From positions 1 through 7,391 of the forward strand of contig CAZMCX010000037.1 in NCBI GenBank assembly GCA_964565125.1: 7,391 nucleotides of DNA, read 5' to 3'. The position numbers were made by a program, and so were the translations under genes. The DNA is from an uncultured archaeon. GTDB lineage: Archaea; Iainarchaeota; Iainarchaeia; Iainarchaeales; 0-14-0-20-30-16. Position 1 is the first letter of the stretch; each line of letters begins with the position of its first letter. The notes under the pieces were generated by a model. It made no database searches, was not told the origin of the DNA, and was given only the letters and a program-made list of their open reading frames with translations. Below are positions 1 through 7,264 of this stretch, piece by piece.

Positions 1-71
1 AAGAAAAGGGATTTATACTCAAAAGCTGTATTTAATATATATTTATTTTTGATTATTTGGAAGTTGATTAC

Positions 72-275
72 ATGGATGTACTAAAAAATGTTAGAACCAG
101 AGGCGGTTTAACCTCAACAGTAATACAATATACCTGTATGAATTGTAGGAAAGTTATTCTTGAATCTGGGCCCGGGGCTTACGGTAGAAGATTTTGCTGT
201 GAAGACTGTAAAAAAGAGTATATGGAAAAAACCAAGCAAGCATCTTCTAAGTTTGAACTTAGCGGTGCAAAATAA
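72..275 (+). CDS. small Cys4 zinc-ribbon protein, TRASH/YHS-like metal-binding motif; function unknown
   Basis: The track ORF 57..275 begins at TTG; the first ATG is at 72 (MDVLKN...). Cys pattern is C-x2-C-x16-C(C)-x3-C. RRFCCEDCKKEY resembles the F-C-x3-C-x3-aromatic half of TRASH/YHS zinc ribbons, though the spacer is shorter than the canonical 19-22. TAA stop. Confidence 0.5.
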   Translation: MDVLKNVRTRGGLTSTVIQYTCMNCRKVILESGPGAYGRRFCCEDCKKEYMEKTKQASSKFELSGAK

Positions 276-2623: not shown

Positions 2624-2839
2624 TTATTTCTTCTTGGCAATCACAAATAAGTGCTCAAAGTTCCATTCTGCTTTAGAAACTGGTTTTCTTTTGTGTTTTT
2701 CTACAATACAAAATCCTGTCTTTTTTAACAAGCCCCCAATTTCTTCCAGATCCATTACATTCAAAAAAGTTTTTTCATCTAGTTTAAGGGGCTCTGTTAA
2801 AAAGATCTCTTCTGGCTTTCCGCACGGGGATGATTTTTT
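2624..2839 (-). pseudogene. C-terminal remnant of a class I SAM-dependent methyltransferase-like gene (no usable start, N-terminal two thirds absent)
   Basis: A 71-codon stop-free frame on the - strand: KKSSPCGKPEEIFLTEPLKLDEKTFLNVMDLEEIGGLLKKTGFCIVEKHKRKPVSKAEWNFEHLFVIAKKK, then TAA at 2626-2624. The segment F-x-x-x-(D/E)L-x-x-LL-x-x-xGF-x-IV followed by a short basic tail is the usual C-terminus of Methyltransf_11/25-type enzymes. No SAM-binding GxGxG region lies upstream. The frame overlaps the end of the SPASM fragment. Confidence 0.3.
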
Positions 2840-3083
2840 CTAGAAAATATTGTATTTTCCTTTTCCTAAACAAATCACATCCAGATAGGCTTTTTTCTAA
2901 TCGTAATGCCTTTGCTCGGCAACCACCTGTACAAATATTTTGTAGACTACATTTAGAACACAGAGAATTTAGATCTAATAAAGCAGTTTTAAATTTAAAT
3001 TGGCCTACAAAATTTATTTTTTTATTGTCTCTTTGTAAACCGATTTTTCTTTTTTGGCAGATAATGATTTTAAAAAAACGCAA
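2784..3083 (-). pseudogene. orphan SPASM-domain fragment of a radical SAM peptide maturase (no radical SAM core attached)
   Basis: 99-codon ORF starting at TTG; the frame opens only at 3089 after a TAA. It contains C42-x2-C45-x5-C51-x3-C55 (CSKCSLQNICTGGC, nt 2919-2960) and then C69 after a 13-residue gap. That is the CX2CX5CX3C-gap-C half of the SPASM seven-Cys motif. No CxxxCxxC or GGE lies upstream because the Nudix gene ends 27 nt away. Confidence 0.6.
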
Positions 3084-3110: not shown

Positions 3111-3992
3111 TCACATATTATTTTTAACTCTTTTTTTTGCATAATAAGACCTCAAAAGTTTATTTGTTGCACCAAATATTCGTAATTTGGGATTATAATA
3201 TTGCCATTCGTCTATTTCTGTTGTAGGTACTTGAGGCAATTTACTAATATCAACTAAATACACTTTTACTTTCGCACCACAAGTGCCTGCTTTAATTTGT
3301 TGTAATATGGGCTTATCATATAAAAAGGTTCCAATAAGCTTTGTAGTGCCAATGTCTTCTACTGCCAGCCCAACTTCTTCCCGTATTTCTCGTTTTAGCG
3401 CTTGCTCATCGGACTCATTTTTCTCTATTCCGCCATGCAAGACATCAAAAAAAGGCAACCCAGGCTTACATACAAGCAAATCTTTACCTTTATATCTTAA
3501 CAAAGCACCAATTGTAGATCTATAAGACAATGATTTTAAATAGTTATAACTTAATGCAATTTGATAGCCCTGTGCGATAAAAAAGGGATTGTTTGTTTCA
3601 GTATACCTATTTTGTTTTTCAAAGTCATATTTTTTCAGCAGGGACCTCAAATTTAATAAGTTATAATATAATTGTTCTGAATTATTATAAAATAGAGGAA
3701 AATTCAAAAAAGCCAAATTTTTATGTTCTCGGCAGATCACGGGTTTATGTGCATAAATAAAATTAGTCAGTGTTGAACTATTTGTTAAAGCTTTTAATGT
3801 CACTACCCCCACATCAACCGACTCTATAAACTTACAATATAAATTAAGGTCTGATTTCAAAATTTTTATATCAATAAGACCTGAACGAATATAAGTTAAA
3901 ATTTTTTTTTCATATTCTTGGCGATCAGGACTTACTCTGTCAGGCCCACTTGCATATCTTGAATACTTTTTATTTTTAGAAATATCCGTCAA
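3111..3992 (-). CDS. Nudix hydrolase with an unassigned ~155-aa N-terminal region
   Basis: 293-aa ORF. Perfect Nudix box G-x5-E-x7-R-E-U-x-E-E-x-G-U: GGIEKNESDEQALKREIREEVGL (residues 187-209, nt 3366-3434). The start is uncertain: the ORF opens with TTG at 3992, has no internal ATG and no convincing SD. TGA stop. Confidence 0.8.
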   Translation of the reverse strand: MTDISKNKKYSRYASGPDRVSPDRQEYEKKILTYIRSGLIDIKILKSDLNLYCKFIESVDVGVVTLKALTNSSTLTNFIYAHKPVICREHKNLAFLNFPLFYNNSEQLYYNLLNLRSLLKKYDFEKQNRYTETNNPFFIAQGYQIALSYNYLKSLSYRSTIGALLRYKGKDLLVCKPGLPFFDVLHGGIEKNESDEQALKREIREEVGLAVEDIGTTKLIGTFLYDKPILQQIKAGTCGAKVKVYLVDISKLPQVPTTEIDEWQYYNPKLRIFGATNKLLRSYYAKKRVKNNM

Positions 3993-4922
3993 ATCGTCTT
4001 TTATCTAACCCCCAATACCTAAATAAAATGAATATAAAAATATCGCTTTTTCAAGTTTTTTCTTTTTTCTTTTTATTGTATTGTAAATCATCATATTTGC
4101 TAGTGCCCCGCTAGTAGTCTTAAGCATTGCAATTTTAAATAAGTCTTTTATATTAGATGATTTTTTTAACTTTTGCTTTTGTTCTAAATAAAAAGACCTC
4201 CAAAGGCAATAGTCATGATAGTATTTTAAGTGATGCGGTATTCCAAAAAATAAAAGTTACTTTTTGGAAATCAAATTTGGAAATAATTTTAAAGAAAAAG
4301 ACGGAATAATTTATCTTACAAAAGACAAATTAGATAAAAATAAGTTGCCTCTGGCAATATTTTTAATTTTTCCTGAAGAGTGTTTAAAATTAATTGAAAA
4401 AAATTAAAATCTGCAAAACTTATAATTGTTATGTATAGATAAAGGGTTTTTGCGAAAAAGTGTTCTTTGAAGCAAAACTTTTTAATTTATGTAGTAACTC
4501 CTAATCACAAGTTCCATTTATTCTTTTCGCTTACTTTTCTTAACATAGAGGTTAATTTTAGTAAGGTTTGTTTCACAAATCTTTCTCCAGATTGCACAGC
4601 CCCCAAAAAATTAAACTTCACTTTCACATCCTGCGAGTCTGTAAAGATTTGGTTTCAATTATTTGGATTAATAACATTTGTAGAAACTAAAGAAACAGAA
4701 AAACAAATTGGCAAAATAGTTATTAATAGAATAAGAAATAATTATAATTTCCCTTTAAAACACATAATATGAAATAGTTATATAAAATATATAAGCTTTA
4801 GCTTTATTTTTTTAATTTGGCGCCATTTTATTTTGTTTCTTTAAAATCAGTAGGGTAAGAAAAAATACCTTTTGTTTATGGAACTATTTTTAAACTAAAC
4901 CAGTCTATATTTTTGTGATATT

Positions 4923-5246
4923 ATGATTAAATATTTGAAAGGAGTTGCAGCAAGTAAAGGTATAGTAACTGGTCCATGTAAAATAATAACTTCTCTCTCA
5001 GATTTGTCCAAAATAAAAAAGGGGGATATACTAGTAACCAGTATGACTATTCCAGATTACCTTCCTGCTATGTCTATTTGTTCAGCTATAATTACTGATG
5101 AAGGGGGTTTATTGTGCCATGCTGCGATAGTTTCAAGAGAGTTTAATATTCCTTGCATTGTAGCAACAAAAAGAGCCACAAAAATTTTAAAAGACAACCA
5201 AATAGTTATTGTTAGGGCAAATGATGGAATAATACAGTTATTTTAA
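4923..5246 (+). CDS. stand-alone PEP-utilising enzyme mobile (swivel phosphohistidine) domain protein
   Basis: The 107-aa ORF (ATG start, TAA stop) aligns end to end with the central domain of PEP synthase/PPDK. Matching segments are LKGVAASKGIVTGPCKII, GDILVTSMTIPDY, and AIITDEGGLLCHAAIVSREFNIPCIV with the phospho-acceptor His66 (nt 5118-5120). The usual T-S before the His is L-C here. No ATP-grasp (PPDK_N) or PEP/pyruvate-binding domain is encoded in the window. Confidence 0.85.
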   Translation: MIKYLKGVAASKGIVTGPCKIITSLSDLSKIKKGDILVTSMTIPDYLPAMSICSAIITDEGGLLCHAAIVSREFNIPCIVATKRATKILKDNQIVIVRANDGIIQLF

Positions 5247-5262
5247 TTTAAAACATGAAATG

Positions 5263-5769
5263 TCATCTCCAAAAAGATTCCCCTAATTTAATAGTTATTT
5301 TCCTTTGTTTATTTAGTTCTAAAAATTTAGTTAAATATAACTCTTCTTTTACAGATAATACCTGATCTGTTTCTTTTGCACGTCCAATATTTCTTAAAGG
5401 TGATGCTTTAAAAGAATCAACTCCTAAAGATTCTGCAAGGCCAATCATTTCATCTAATTCATTAATATTTGTTTTACTTATTGTTGCTTGCCACATTACG
5501 GGTATTTTTACAGATAATATATTTTTCAGACCGTGAATAGCTTTATCAAAAGAGCCAGGTACTCCTCTCAAATAATCATGAGTAGAGGGCTTAGCACCAT
5601 CAATACTTATTTTTATGGCAGATACTCCCGCAGTTTTTAATTTTTTTGCGATGCTTTTTGAAATTAGGGTTCCATTAGAAAACATTTCTGTTTTAAAATT
5701 TTTAGAAAATAGCTTGACAATTTTAAACCAATTCTGTGCTGATAATGGCTCCCCTCCAGTAATAATCAC
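5263..5769 (-). CDS. radical SAM enzyme, C-terminal part of the TIM barrel (downstream half of the same frame-disrupted gene); no SPASM/twitch domain, no Cys at all
   Basis: The track start is GTG at 5769, but the frame is open further upstream. Motifs: IITGGEPL (the GGE SAM-binding motif), FSNGTL, KISIDG, THDYLRGVPGSFDKA, NIGRAKE. Reading one extra A in the tract joins both parts as ...IVDFLKKLGNPTVIITGGEPL..., 301 aa in total. Confidence 0.85.
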   Translation of the reverse strand: MIITGGEPLSAQNWFKIVKLFSKNFKTEMFSNGTLISKSIAKKLKTAGVSAIKISIDGAKPSTHDYLRGVPGSFDKAIHGLKNILSVKIPVMWQATISKTNINELDEMIGLAESLGVDSFKASPLRNIGRAKETDQVLSVKEELYLTKFLELNKQRKITIKLGESFWR

Positions 5770-6167
5770 AGTTGGATTTCCAAGTTTTTTAAAAAATCTA
5801 CAATTCTACTTGCTTTTTTAAAACTTAAATCAGTAGTATGTTGTAATCCTGAGTTATTATAACAGCTTAAACAATTCAAATTACATTTTTTAGTAATTTC
5901 TAAATAAATAATTCCGTCAAATGGTTGTTGTTTTTTTAAAGAAATTATTTTTTTAAAAAGGTAATTATGATCCAATTTATCAATTATTTGTTCCTTTTCC
6001 AAAACTGCTAAATCAAGAGAGTTAATTTTTTTTGAGTTATTTGATAAAAAGGCAATTATTTTATCACTGCAAAAAAATTGGGTATTTTTTAACAAATTAA
6101 CTATAATACCCTGTCCCCTAATTTTCCAGAATACTATTCCAGGCCTTAAATTTTGTTTTTGCTTCAT
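5766..6167 (-). CDS. radical SAM enzyme, N-terminal part: RRE-like extension plus CxxxCxxC cluster motif (upstream half of a frame-disrupted gene)
   Basis: ATG at 6167 with GGAG (6178-6175) 7 nt upstream. ITKKCNLNCLSCY gives C95-x3-C99-x2-C102 (nt 5862-5885). About 90 residues precede it, with a strand/strand/strand/helix pattern resembling a PqqD-type RRE. The ORF ends in IVDFLKNLEIQL*, just after a T6A6 tract. Confidence 0.85.
   Translation of the reverse strand: MKQKQNLRPGIVFWKIRGQGIIVNLLKNTQFFCSDKIIAFLSNNSKKINSLDLAVLEKEQIIDKLDHNYLFKKIISLKKQQPFDGIIYLEITKKCNLNCLSCYNNSGLQHTTDLSFKKASRIVDFLKNLEIQL
5784..5796 (-). other. T6A6 homopolymer tract / in-phase A_AAA_AAC heptamer at the radical SAM frame break
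   Basis: The - strand reads GAT TTT TTA AAA AAC TTG in the upstream frame. The downstream frame is reached by a -1 shift, or by one extra A/T in the tract. The heptamer A AAA AAC (5790-5784) is in the X_XXY_YYZ phase. Confidence 0.7.
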
Positions 6168-7089
6168 CTAGTTTCTCCAAATTAAATTCCATTCTATATT
6201 TAGTTAATTTTCGCTTAGCTTTATTTAAAAATTTATCTATTGGCAGATATAATCCCATTTTATTTGTTTTTGCAAATCCATCCAAAATCTCAAAATATAA
6301 TCTTAATTGATTTTTATTAGTTTCTATTCCAGATATATCTTTCCATTTTTTTAACTGAATGAATAATTGTGCTAACTGCTTAAAATCACTTGTAACACAG
6401 GCTATTGATTGATGTTTTTTAAAAATAAGATTATGTTCTTTAACCTGTTGCAGTAATCTAACTGCGGGAAGAAACTGAAAATAATTCATGTTAAAAAGAT
6501 TTAGATAGTTCCTAAACTCAGCAGAATTCTTTAAATTAGTTAGTGAATATAATTTTTTTAATTCTAGTTCAACTTCTTGCATTTTTGAATCATTAAAAAG
6601 ATCTTTAACTACCAATAAGTTACATACTGCCAAGCGTATGTCTTTGTTTAACATAATTTTTTTTGCTATTAAAAATCTTTTTGTCAAAATAGAATGAAAA
6701 TTTAAATCCAAGTTTGAGAGAAAAATTAATTCATCTATATTGTGTAATTTTGCATAATCTTTTATCTTTGTAATAAGTTTATGCTCAATAATGCCCTCAT
6801 CAATTACCTGATTAAATAATTGAGAATAACCATAAACTAAAACAATTGAATTTATTATTAAATTGTTATAATCTTCTAGATTTGAAGATTTTATTTTATT
6901 AACTATTTTTTCTAATTCTATGCCTGTTTGAATAGCTATTAAGCCATATTTATCTATTAGTGATGGATTTACATCCGAATTATTAAAACAAGAAAAAAAA
7001 GATATTACAAAATCATTAAAATCTGGGGAAATTTTTGACAAGTTTTCAAAAATGCGATTTGCTACGGCGTCATTACAAATTTTTAACAT
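6118..7089 (-). CDS. hypothetical, predominantly alpha-helical 323-aa protein; candidate accessory protein of the radical SAM locus
   Basis: Long ORF with ATG start at 7089, 14 nt after the small-peptide stop, and TAG stop at 6118. It overlaps the radical SAM start by 50 nt. Composition is Leu/Ile/Lys/Asn-rich and helical-looking. I can find no catalytic or cofactor motif (no HExxH, P-loop or Cys cluster). Confidence 0.7.
   Translation of the reverse strand: MLKICNDAVANRIFENLSKISPDFNDFVISFFSCFNNSDVNPSLIDKYGLIAIQTGIELEKIVNKIKSSNLEDYNNLIINSIVLVYGYSQLFNQVIDEGIIEHKLITKIKDYAKLHNIDELIFLSNLDLNFHSILTKRFLIAKKIMLNKDIRLAVCNLLVVKDLFNDSKMQEVELELKKLYSLTNLKNSAEFRNYLNLFNMNYFQFLPAVRLLQQVKEHNLIFKKHQSIACVTSDFKQLAQLFIQLKKWKDISGIETNKNQLRLYFEILDGFAKTNKMGLYLPIDKFLNKAKRKLTKYRMEFNLEKLDEAKTKFKAWNSILEN
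6175..6178 (-). promoter_or_regulatory. Shine-Dalgarno (GGAG) of the radical SAM gene, embedded in the 3' end of the 323-aa ORF
   Basis: The - strand reads TTGGAGAAACTAGATG, placing GGAG 7 nt before ATG 6167. Confidence 0.5.
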
Positions 7090-7103
7090 AACTGCACGAT
7101 CTT

Positions 7104-7253
7104 TTATTTACACCAACTACATGGACCAGCATAACCTTTTCCAAATGCTTTAATCCAAGTATCATCAAAATATACTTTTTCTATATTACGGGGTATTTTA
7201 TTTTCTTCTATTATTTTTTTATTTACTTTTTTCTTTTCCATTATCGCCCTCAT
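7104..7253 (-). CDS. 49-aa candidate RiPP precursor peptide (not in the ORF track)
   Basis: ATG at 7253 preceded by GAGGTG with a 5-nt spacer. Translation: MRAIMEKKKVNKKIIEENKIPRNIEKVYFDDTWIKAFGKGYAGPCSWCK, with TAA at 7106-7104. It is the first gene of the same-strand radical SAM operon. A second in-frame ATG at 7241 (MEKKK...) is an alternative start. Confidence 0.55.
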   Translation of the reverse strand: MRAIMEKKKVNKKIIEENKIPRNIEKVYFDDTWIKAFGKGYAGPCSWCK

Positions 7254-7258
7254 ATCTT

Positions 7259-7264
7259 CACCTC
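7259..7264 (-). promoter_or_regulatory. Shine-Dalgarno (GAGGTG) of the 49-aa ORF
   Basis: The - strand reads AATAATGAGGTGAAGATATG. This is the strongest anti-SD complement in the window and the spacing is optimal. Confidence 0.6.

Follow-up and report, generated by a model that had tools for sequence, protein, structure and literature searches.

The contig CAZMCX010000037.1, 7391 nt in all and 30% G+C, came from an uncultured archaeon and was analysed over its entire length, and that whole stretch is called the window here. Near its high-numbered end, on the minus strand, lies a 49-codon open reading frame (ORF) that runs from an ATG at 7253-7251 to a TAA at 7106-7104 and encodes MRAIMEKKKVNKKIIEENKIPRNIEKVYFDDTWIKAFGKGYAGPCSWCK. 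This small gene, its relatives and the radical S-adenosylmethionine (rSAM) enzymes encoded beside them are the subject of this account. A sequence-only reading had singled out the ORF, its strand unstated, as a candidate precursor peptide with the best Shine-Dalgarno (SD) sequence in the window, and the ORF was present exactly as described. The start signal, too, bore scrutiny: a scan of both strands of the window showed GAGGTGA to be a 7-nt match to the anti-SD complement and the longest correctly spaced match 5' of any start, and SD-like motifs also stand 5' of most of the peptide's homologues. That the ORF lay directly upstream of a radical SAM operon was true in so far as the operon is downstream, but the adjoining gene, 14 nt 3' and on the same strand, encodes a protein of 323 aa, the first rSAM gene (rSAM1) comes next and overlaps that gene's end, and the operon is degraded (Table 1). 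The further argument that 49 stop-free codons were unlikely by chance was only weakly true, in that P = 0.033 that the 302-nt stretch would by chance hold, on the operon strand, an ORF this long or longer, while shuffled windows gave about 7.8 ORFs of 49 aa or more and the window's own ORF list holds many spurious ORFs near this one in size. Length being by itself weak evidence, it was on conservation of its sequence that the ORF was accepted as a gene. No Rfam family or tRNA was found in the window.

Table 1. Features of the locus in the 7391-nt window
Feature	Position	Strand	Basis or remark
Candidate precursor-peptide gene, 49 aa, stop included	7104..7253	-	ORF list; phmmer homologues; one copy per related locus by hidden Markov model (HMM)
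SD-like GAGGTGA, 4 nt 5' of the ATG	7258..7264	-	No anti-SD match at the right spacing is longer in the window
Residues 1-23, N-terminal segment rich in Lys and Glu, variable	7185..7253	-	Neither length nor sequence kept in a 9-member alignment
Residues 24-49, conserved block IEKVYFDDTWIKAFGKGYAGPCSWCK	7107..7184	-	Many synonymous codon changes, few replacements
323-aa all-helical protein ("32x" family), conserved cluster component	6118..7089	-	Homologues in six loci
rSAM1, N-terminal ~300 residues: domain like a RiPP (ribosomally made peptide with post-translational modifications) recognition element (RRE), radical SAM core, CNLNCLSC	5263..6167	-	Frameshifted, truncated before SPASM
PEP-utilizers (phosphohistidine swivel) protein, inverted, between the rSAM1 pieces	4923..5246	+	Pfam 5.2e-24
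293-aa NUDIX ORF	3111..3992	-	Pfam NUDIX 1.3e-7; N-terminus weakly like rSAM1 ~312-338
Detached C-terminal SPASM tail of rSAM1, CX2CX5CX3C...C	2784..3083	-	tblastn; family C-terminal HMM, E=1e-9; TIGR04085 SPASM, 6.7e-6

A word-indexed homology search with the peptide returned nothing beyond a 98% identical variant, and for that reason the partner enzyme, in the form of a profile of repaired rSAM1, was taken as the handle on related loci. A homologous small ORF proved to head the cluster in seven lineages (L012/L023, L015, L017, L020, L024, L026 and L028), of which L012/L023 is Ca. Micrarchaeota MAS4.bin50 (JAJZOD010000002.1), L017 is GCA_027334085.1 and L024 is Ca. Micrarchaeota YP3.bin49 (JAKAUU010000015.1). 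The MAS4.bin50 peptide is MASKTKVVAKPEMKLDKPELKSIRRIYFDDTWIKAFGRGYSGPCSWCV and that of L017 is MQEKREFIRKAYFDDTWLKAFAKNYSGPCSGLCSS; the C-terminal parts in L015 and L020 are ...LLSIKRIYFDDTWIKAFGRGYSGPCSWCK and ...KHIKRIYFNDAWIKAFGKNYSGPCSGKC, respectively. An exhaustive phmmer search of 1.84 billion representative proteins gave four relatives of the window peptide (E values of 9e-10, 1.8e-9 and 1.5e-4 were reported), and brought in P0125 (MGEKLLKEEQITKHIKKIYFDDTWIKAFGKNYQGPCSGKC) and P0127 (...WIQEIEFNDGWLKAFGRGYAGPCST), both new and each the first gene of a cluster with rSAM1 and a second such enzyme, rSAM2. A degenerate DNA pattern for YF[DN]DxWxKAF, run against 185,579 species genomes, matched two Micrarchaeota metagenome-assembled genomes and, by chance and inside unrelated frames, two bacteria (L022, Clostridia; L025, Bdellovibrionota), which were rejected. 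An HMM of nine family members found exactly one copy at each related locus, and no copy near more distant rSAM relatives. The gene has 35-62 codons across the family and had gone uncalled in L015 and L017. No member matched any Pfam or NCBIfam model, and the full-text literature on RiPPs of Micrarchaeota, Diapherotrites or DPANN archaea with these features yielded nothing on the family.

The pattern of substitution in these relatives carried the case for a gene. Over 22 aligned codons, in host genomes of 32-53% G+C, synonymous differences per site (pS) were 0.55-1.08, i.e., saturated, and nonsynonymous differences per site (pN) 0.02-0.26; between L012 and L015 there were 13 synonymous differences and a single replacement. 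The earlier reading had proposed that an ORF interrupted or absent in relatives, or conserved in nothing beyond its base composition, would tell against it. The ORF was intact in all seven lineages with the relevant DNA, its C-terminal block was conserved across that range of composition, and in every case the ORF stood first in a cluster that encodes a member of one and the same radical SAM/SPASM family. Judged by how its sequence has evolved, the ORF codes for a conserved protein and is under purifying selection, and that it is a real gene is as good as certain. The idea that AT-rich DNA threw up this ORF, and an SD-like sequence before it, by chance, to which the shuffled windows and the similar-sized spurious ORFs lend what support it has, retains virtually no probability: conservation, strict synteny and the phmmer E values, down to 9e-10 against 1.84e9 proteins, have already refuted it.

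Conservation is unevenly spread along the peptide. The N-terminal 11-38 residues of the family are free to vary in both length and sequence, and the conserved block, counted from about five residues before Tyr-Phe, reads I-[KRE]-[KRE]-[IVA]-[YE]-F-[DN]-D-[TAG]-W-[IL]-K-A-F-[GA]-[KR]-[GN]-Y-x-[GR]-P-C-[SG]. In window numbering, F29, D31, W33, K35, A36, F37, Y41, P44 and C45 are invariant and residue 39 is Lys or Arg. Some points of the sequence-only reading therefore have to be corrected. Its Lys/Glu-rich, leader-like N-terminus is indeed rich in Lys and Glu over about 23 residues, but these are the unconserved part of the peptide, and because they are unconserved the recognition element is probably to be sought in the conserved block instead. 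Its choice of Trp, Tyr, Lys and Cys as candidates for modification agrees with the invariance of the upstream W-x-K, the Tyr, the Pro-Cys and the Lys/Arg site, but not with the Trp and second Cys of CSWC. The CSWC motif itself, for which conservation had been proposed as a check, is not conserved. Family members end in CSWCK, CSWCV, CSGKC, CSGLCSS or CST, the last of these, in L028, with a single Cys; the second Cys is spaced C-x2-C or C-x3-C, the Trp gives way to Gly-Leu, Gly-Lys or Arg-Lys (as in CSGLC, CSGKC and CSRKC), and the first Cys alone is invariant.

The one constant neighbour of the peptide across lineages is rSAM1, present as a remnant even in L024, while the accessory genes change. 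With the repaired rSAM1 profile, five homologues stood out as a sharply bounded clade, at 301-451 bits and 41-58% identity, and the matches after them fell to 153 bits. These homologues are 432-445 aa long; some 85 residues come before their CX3CX2C motif, and their SPASM cysteines are complete. An AlphaFold (AF2) model of homologue P0004, which is 57% identical to the window protein (predicted local distance difference test, pLDDT, 82.9), has four strands and three helices in residues 1-80, followed by the barrel and the SPASM domain, and this modelled N-terminal domain appears to have the topology of an RRE. As predicted, then, the architecture of rSAM1 would be RRE-rSAM-SPASM, which is that of peptide maturases. 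Its best Foldseek matches in the PDB were likewise RiPP maturases, namely SkfB (391 columns), CteB and SuiB (452-468 columns), and SkfB was also its best PDB match by sequence (2.8e-32). Intact clusters encode rSAM2, a second rSAM/SPASM enzyme, and L012 has three rSAMs; none of rSAM1, rSAM2 and rSAM3 reached the curated cut-off of any NCBIfam model.

Around this constant pair of peptide and rSAM1, two sets of accessory genes were found, and they follow residue 39. Lys-type clusters encode a swivel-domain protein of the PEP (phosphoenolpyruvate)-utilizers family (~107-111 aa; PEPut), a PPDK_N ATP-grasp protein (~284-309 aa) and the helical 32x protein (~322-336 aa) together with rSAM1 and rSAM2, and Lys stands at 39 in the peptides of the window, L017, L020, L024 and L026. 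L010 and L016 have the 32x gene as well, on contigs that do not reach the peptide. An absence of the peptide from L010, where the 32x homologue is 48% identical to the window's and has 64 nt upstream with no CSWC-like tail, was considered and rejected, because in Lys-type clusters it is PEPut or PPDK_N, and not the peptide, that precedes the 32x gene; the upstream tail in L010, ...NQGRNLLVIKSSTA, is compatible with a PEPut C-terminus. Homologues of the 323-aa protein, 33-48% identical, occur in L010, L016, L017, L020, L024 and L026, each time immediately upstream of rSAM1. L026 has its genes in the order peptide, PEPut, PPDK_N, 333-aa protein, rSAM1, rSAM2, and in the gene order of L020 and L026 the family takes the position of the middle, substrate-binding part of PEP synthase-like enzymes. 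Profile searches of Pfam, NCBIfam and the PDB with this protein gave no match, an alignment scan of genome and metagenome contigs added nothing new, and its predicted structure reached a pLDDT of 37. A gene for a thermopsin-family protease follows the cluster in the two loci of Micrarchaeota type, L017 (9877-10863) and L024 (2541-3524), potentially a leader peptidase, or potentially a mere neighbour.

Arg-type clusters, with Arg at 39, are without the trio of PEPut, PPDK_N and 32x and have instead an arginase-family (PF00491) protein with its GGDHS and DAHxD motifs intact, the Arg residue and this gene occurring together in L012 and L028. In L012/L023 the order is the peptide gene, rSAM1, rSAM2, the arginase-family gene, one for a 118-aa protein, a third rSAM gene (rSAM3) and one for a GNAT protein. 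In the L028 cluster (11065-15127) the two rSAM genes are followed by those for the arginase-family protein, for a class-III aminotransferase and for a YcaO, a combination seen in no other cluster. When rSAM1 was placed on a neighbour-joining tree (no bootstrap), L028 was the outgroup and L012/L015 were nested among lineages with the Lys-type trio (the window, L010, L016), so that the two intact Arg-type clusters are separated on the tree. We infer that residue 39 may be a modification site that needs a primary amine, supplied by Lys or by ornithine made from Arg.

In the window itself the pathway is in a poor state. The locus keeps the radical SAM motif CNLNCLSC, but its SPASM tail is 2.2 kb distant and no part of the same polypeptide. 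The rSAM1 frame is shifted in an A-run at about 5784-5790, a defect common to the window and L001-L003; with one A more, L004, L005 and L006 read through in a continuous ORF. At 6077 a T-run has suffered a deletion in L002, L007 and L008, in L007 with a nearby compensating insertion at 6034. Such differences could mean that the gene is decaying and truly polymorphic, or they could be homopolymer assembly errors. Even with its frame repaired, the window's rSAM1 stops at residue 301 (...GESFWR, then a stop codon), where its homologues continue GESFCD(I/V)NEDWR, and it is without the equivalent of C301, the truncation being also placed at residue ~309. The detached tail, at about 2996-2835, matches by tblastn residues ~380-432 of rSAM1 and not rSAM2. 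Between the pieces stand the inverted PEPut gene, its product 48-55% identical to the cluster PEPut proteins of L017, L020 and L026, an ORF-poor stretch of about 900 nt (4000-4900, ~25% G+C) and the NUDIX ORF. The N-terminus of this last gave weak tblastn matches from four homologues to rSAM1 residues 312-338 (HMM E 0.06-0.15), with the first SPASM Cys replaced, which is suggestive of a SPASM remnant. No repeats were found bounding the 2.2-kb interruption, nor any remnant of rSAM2 or PPDK_N in the 7.4-kb window, even at E=5. Because the split arrangement recurs in independent assemblies, the locus being >99% identical in those from at least nine other samples, it must be real.

Some smaller observations on the locus may be put on record. 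A NUDIX gene adjoins the intact L026 cluster (7518-7862, minus strand), the similarity amounting to 21 residues only, and in one strain a 40-aa ORF (4127-4005, minus; 3993-4127 of the window) is fused in frame to the NUDIX ORF to give P0149, of 338 aa, so that the gene does not begin at one fixed point throughout the population. The intergenic segment 7286-7378 is a local hot spot of variation, with 17 differences from L004 62-152, four of them indels, in ~93 nt, in strains otherwise >99% identical. On a Logan contig (L005, 1-150) the peptide ORF is joined in frame, at a Lys-rich A-run, to an unrelated coding sequence (KPGTVGIKVSILRPDVYLHDK...), probably as an assembly chimera at low-complexity sequence. 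At 57-275 (+) of the window a 72-aa ORF, unrelated to the cluster, has two CxxC pairs and is zinc-ribbon-like, with weak Pfam matches.

Decay of this kind is recurrent in the family. L015 has an rSAM1 (6001-7146) truncated after ~327 residues and ending in an unrelated tail, no rSAM2, and a DDE transposase gene (9659-11203) 2.5 kb from rSAM1; its peptide gene (5672-5860, 62 aa) is intact. In L024 a deletion (~4660-4900) has fused rSAM1 residues 1-45 to rSAM2 residues 369-474, in a setting where the flanking genes are 98-99% identical to those of L017; its peptide departs from that of L017 at 6 residues out of 35, GPCS having become RPCG among other changes, and the gene and its upstream DNA are only ~90% identical. 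This divergence may reflect relaxed selection after the loss of the rSAMs or, the upstream intergenic DNA being as diverged as the peptide gene, a recombination tract.

For the window, then, the pathway seems to be decaying, and the peptide, its gene intact, may no longer be matured. With rSAM1 frameshifted and split, and with rSAM2 and PPDK_N absent from the contig, that the peptide is still matured in this organism is at best an even call. Whether the gene is a relic, left unexpressed or its product unmodified in a Diapherotrites population that has pseudogenised the pathway, is finely balanced. The two homopolymer indels, the displaced SPASM tail and the recurrence of the arrangement in independent assemblies all point that way. 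Against this, intact reading frames are kept for the peptide, with its strong SD, for the 323-aa protein and for PEPut, and within the population the ORF shows one synonymous change and rare replacements (R2G, P21L, F29L). An additional A restores the frame in L004-L006, rSAM2 and PPDK_N could be encoded elsewhere in the genome, and, since split genes are common in DPANN archaea, even an rSAM1 in three pieces is conceivable.

For the family as a whole, the reading we favour is that the ORF encodes a ribosomally made substrate of the rSAM/SPASM enzymes in intact DPANN clusters, and we hold it to be probably correct. A short ORF co-oriented with a modifying-enzyme gene was found in the window and in seven related lineages, and its coding sequence is conserved in the homologous clusters, as for a RiPP precursor; synteny and selection thus both support the candidate precursor peptide of the original reading, with corrections as to its key residues and the local state of its enzymes. 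In the scheme we propose, the conserved C-terminal block would both dock the peptide on the enzyme and carry the modified residues. By abstracting hydrogen atoms, rSAM1 and rSAM2 would cross-link the invariant Trp33/Lys35 (W-x-K), Tyr41 and Cys45, through C-C bonds such as streptide and tryglysin have, through a Cys thioether as in sactipeptides, or through both, the thioether being suggested by the invariant Cys and by SkfB and CteB as the closest relatives of rSAM1. The amine of residue 39 would be offered directly by Lys in clusters with the split PEP synthase-like set, and by ornithine from Arg in those with the arginase-family protein, and the accessory enzymes might then act at residue 39 or elsewhere. 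More tentatively, the family could be a new DPANN class of ribosomal peptide in which two rSAM/SPASM enzymes cross-link W-x-K...Y..PC and a three-gene PEP synthase-like phospho-histidine relay processes the Lys or ornithine, to give a cofactor or a mediator between symbiont and host.

Several points weigh against this reading. The modification is putative in every lineage, and the choice of modified residues is a guess from their invariance. A variable N-terminus with a conserved C-terminus is the reverse of the classic arrangement, in which the leader is conserved and the core varies. The RRE family of Pfam, PqqD, went undetected by sequence in the rSAM N-termini, and it is from the predicted fold that an RRE is assigned. 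AhbD, a SPASM enzyme of the heme pathway, scores with rSAM1 (138-141 bits) as well as WgkB does (114-132 bits), all far below the cut-offs. The arginase-like proteins of the clusters belong to PF00491 and not to the known peptide-arginase family PF12640. Lastly, in three lineages (the window, L015, L024) the peptide gene has outlasted rSAM genes that are now broken or deleted, and could have a function independent of them.

That last point leads to the thought that the product is an unmodified small protein, e.g., a regulator, an enzyme subunit or chaperone, or a membrane-active peptide, that is merely co-transcribed with the enzymes. The sequence IYFDDTWIKAF, in the conserved block, is amphipathic and might serve as a helix for binding. 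Yet rSAM1 is the sole constant neighbour in clusters whose accessory genes change, its architecture and structural neighbours are those of peptide maturases, and if that residue is left unmodified, the covariation of Lys or Arg with the arginase gene is difficult to account for. In L024, with its rSAMs deleted, Gly-Pro-Cys-Ser has become Arg-Pro-Cys-Gly beside those near-identical flanking genes. An unmodified protein is in our estimation quite improbable.

Somewhat less improbable, but still unlikely, is a precursor of a peptide-derived redox cofactor, in the manner of pyrroloquinoline quinone (PQQ) from PqqA or mycofactocin from MftA, with a few invariant residues (Trp, Lys, Tyr, Cys) cross-linked or oxidised and the product used inside the cell. 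In its favour stand the near-invariant core, the single copy per genome locus and the lack from the clusters of any conserved transporter, immunity gene or dedicated leader peptidase. A core that hardly varies alongside enzymes only 22-60% identical is what cofactor precursors typically show and antimicrobial RiPPs do not; the hosts, as DPANN archaea, have reduced genomes, and models of the mycofactocin and PqqE maturases are among the NCBIfam matches. On the other side, the C-terminal Gly-Val-Tyr that is among the defining motifs of PqqA and MftA is absent, no PqqB/C or MftB/D/E/F homologue was seen in the clusters, and no partner oxidoreductase is conserved there. The family is, besides, extremely rare and repeatedly lost or degraded, which would be unusual for a needed cofactor.

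DPANN archaea have tiny genomes and depend on hosts, and to our knowledge almost nothing is known of their ribosomal peptide natural products or peptide-derived cofactors. If our reading of the family as radical SAM substrates is right, a conserved precursor, a delimited enzyme clade and two accessory sets that covary with one residue make a directly testable system, for which intact clusters are at hand in Ca. Micrarchaeota MAS4.bin50, L026 and L028. Should the PEP synthase-like trio or the arginase-fold enzyme indeed act on the peptide, either would be new enzyme chemistry for RiPP biosynthesis. There is a lesson for annotation as well, in that a gene of so few codons, missed by some callers, is real, and the window would be a biosynthetic cluster caught in mid-decay.

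Set beside the known systems, the family has familiar parts in an unfamiliar combination. As in the streptide and tryglysin systems (StrB, SuiB, WgkB), a short precursor stands beside an rSAM-SPASM enzyme, in the family with a predicted RRE, SuiB ranks with the best structural matches to rSAM1, WgkB is its best RiPP-specific NCBIfam match, and the invariant W-x-K recalls the W-G-K motif in which WgkB joins Trp and Lys (PMC9389541). The precursors of those systems, however, have no sequence similarity to the family, whose hosts are archaeal. The motif here is W-I/L-K rather than W-G-K, and rSAM1's 114-132 bits against the tryglysin model NF050035 fall well short of a cut-off of 650. Nor is there the KxxxW of streptide, the window peptide having K26-x6-W33 and W33-x-K35, and rSAM2 reaches 77 bits where TIGR04080 asks 500. 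The streptococcal systems are also without the family's split PEP synthase-like set, arginase-family protein and YcaO, and the family has two rSAMs, or three in L012.

With the sactipeptides and ranthipeptides (SkfB, CteB, AlbA, PapB; SCIFF) the family shares its enzyme's closest relatives, SkfB being the best match of rSAM1 in both sequence and fold and CteB the second, and its invariant near-C-terminal Cys could donate a thioether. Those precursors have a Cys-rich core (e.g., six Cys in ~45 residues), whereas the family has one or two Cys, of which one is invariant, and it matches none of the SCIFF or sactipeptide precursor models in NCBIfam and Pfam. The PqqA/PqqE-PqqD and MftA/MftC-MftB systems likewise have a tiny, single-copy precursor with a near-invariant, Tyr-containing C-terminal core and an rSAM/SPASM maturase with an RRE-type recognition domain, that of the family being putative, from its predicted fold. 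They differ in the Glu-x3-Tyr and C-terminal Gly-Val-Tyr that the family does not have, and in their accompanying Pqq and Mft genes, which are not in the clusters; the PqqE and MftC models score 70-107 bits against cut-offs of 265-381 (mycofactocin TIGR03962, 92-107 against 265), and the peptide does not pass as an MftA.

The accessory proteins have their own precedents. The PPDK_N and PEP-utilizers proteins match the N- and C-terminal domains of PEP synthase-like enzymes such as the rifampicin phosphotransferase RPH and PigC/RedH, in which these parts are fused, whereas in the family's clusters they are separate genes accompanied by a 323-aa protein without detectable similarity to known domains; searches of the literature found nothing linking PEP-utilizing enzymes with RiPP maturation, and a peptide substrate would, as far as they show, be unprecedented. 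Conversion of Arg to ornithine is an established RiPP modification (PMC12703449, PMC10028609), made by peptide arginases of PF12640 (PMC12703449) such as OspR, and the co-occurrence of the Arg site with a ureohydrolase gene suggests the same reaction on the peptide, but the enzymes of the family are of the canonical arginase/agmatinase kind, PF00491, and their activity on a peptide is putative. By all that comparison of sequences and models indicates, the system works like a radical SAM RiPP pathway while failing the defining motif or score test of each one known. What is new in it is a precursor family as yet uncurated, an unusual accessory set, and a lineage whose chemistry of this sort is unexplored.

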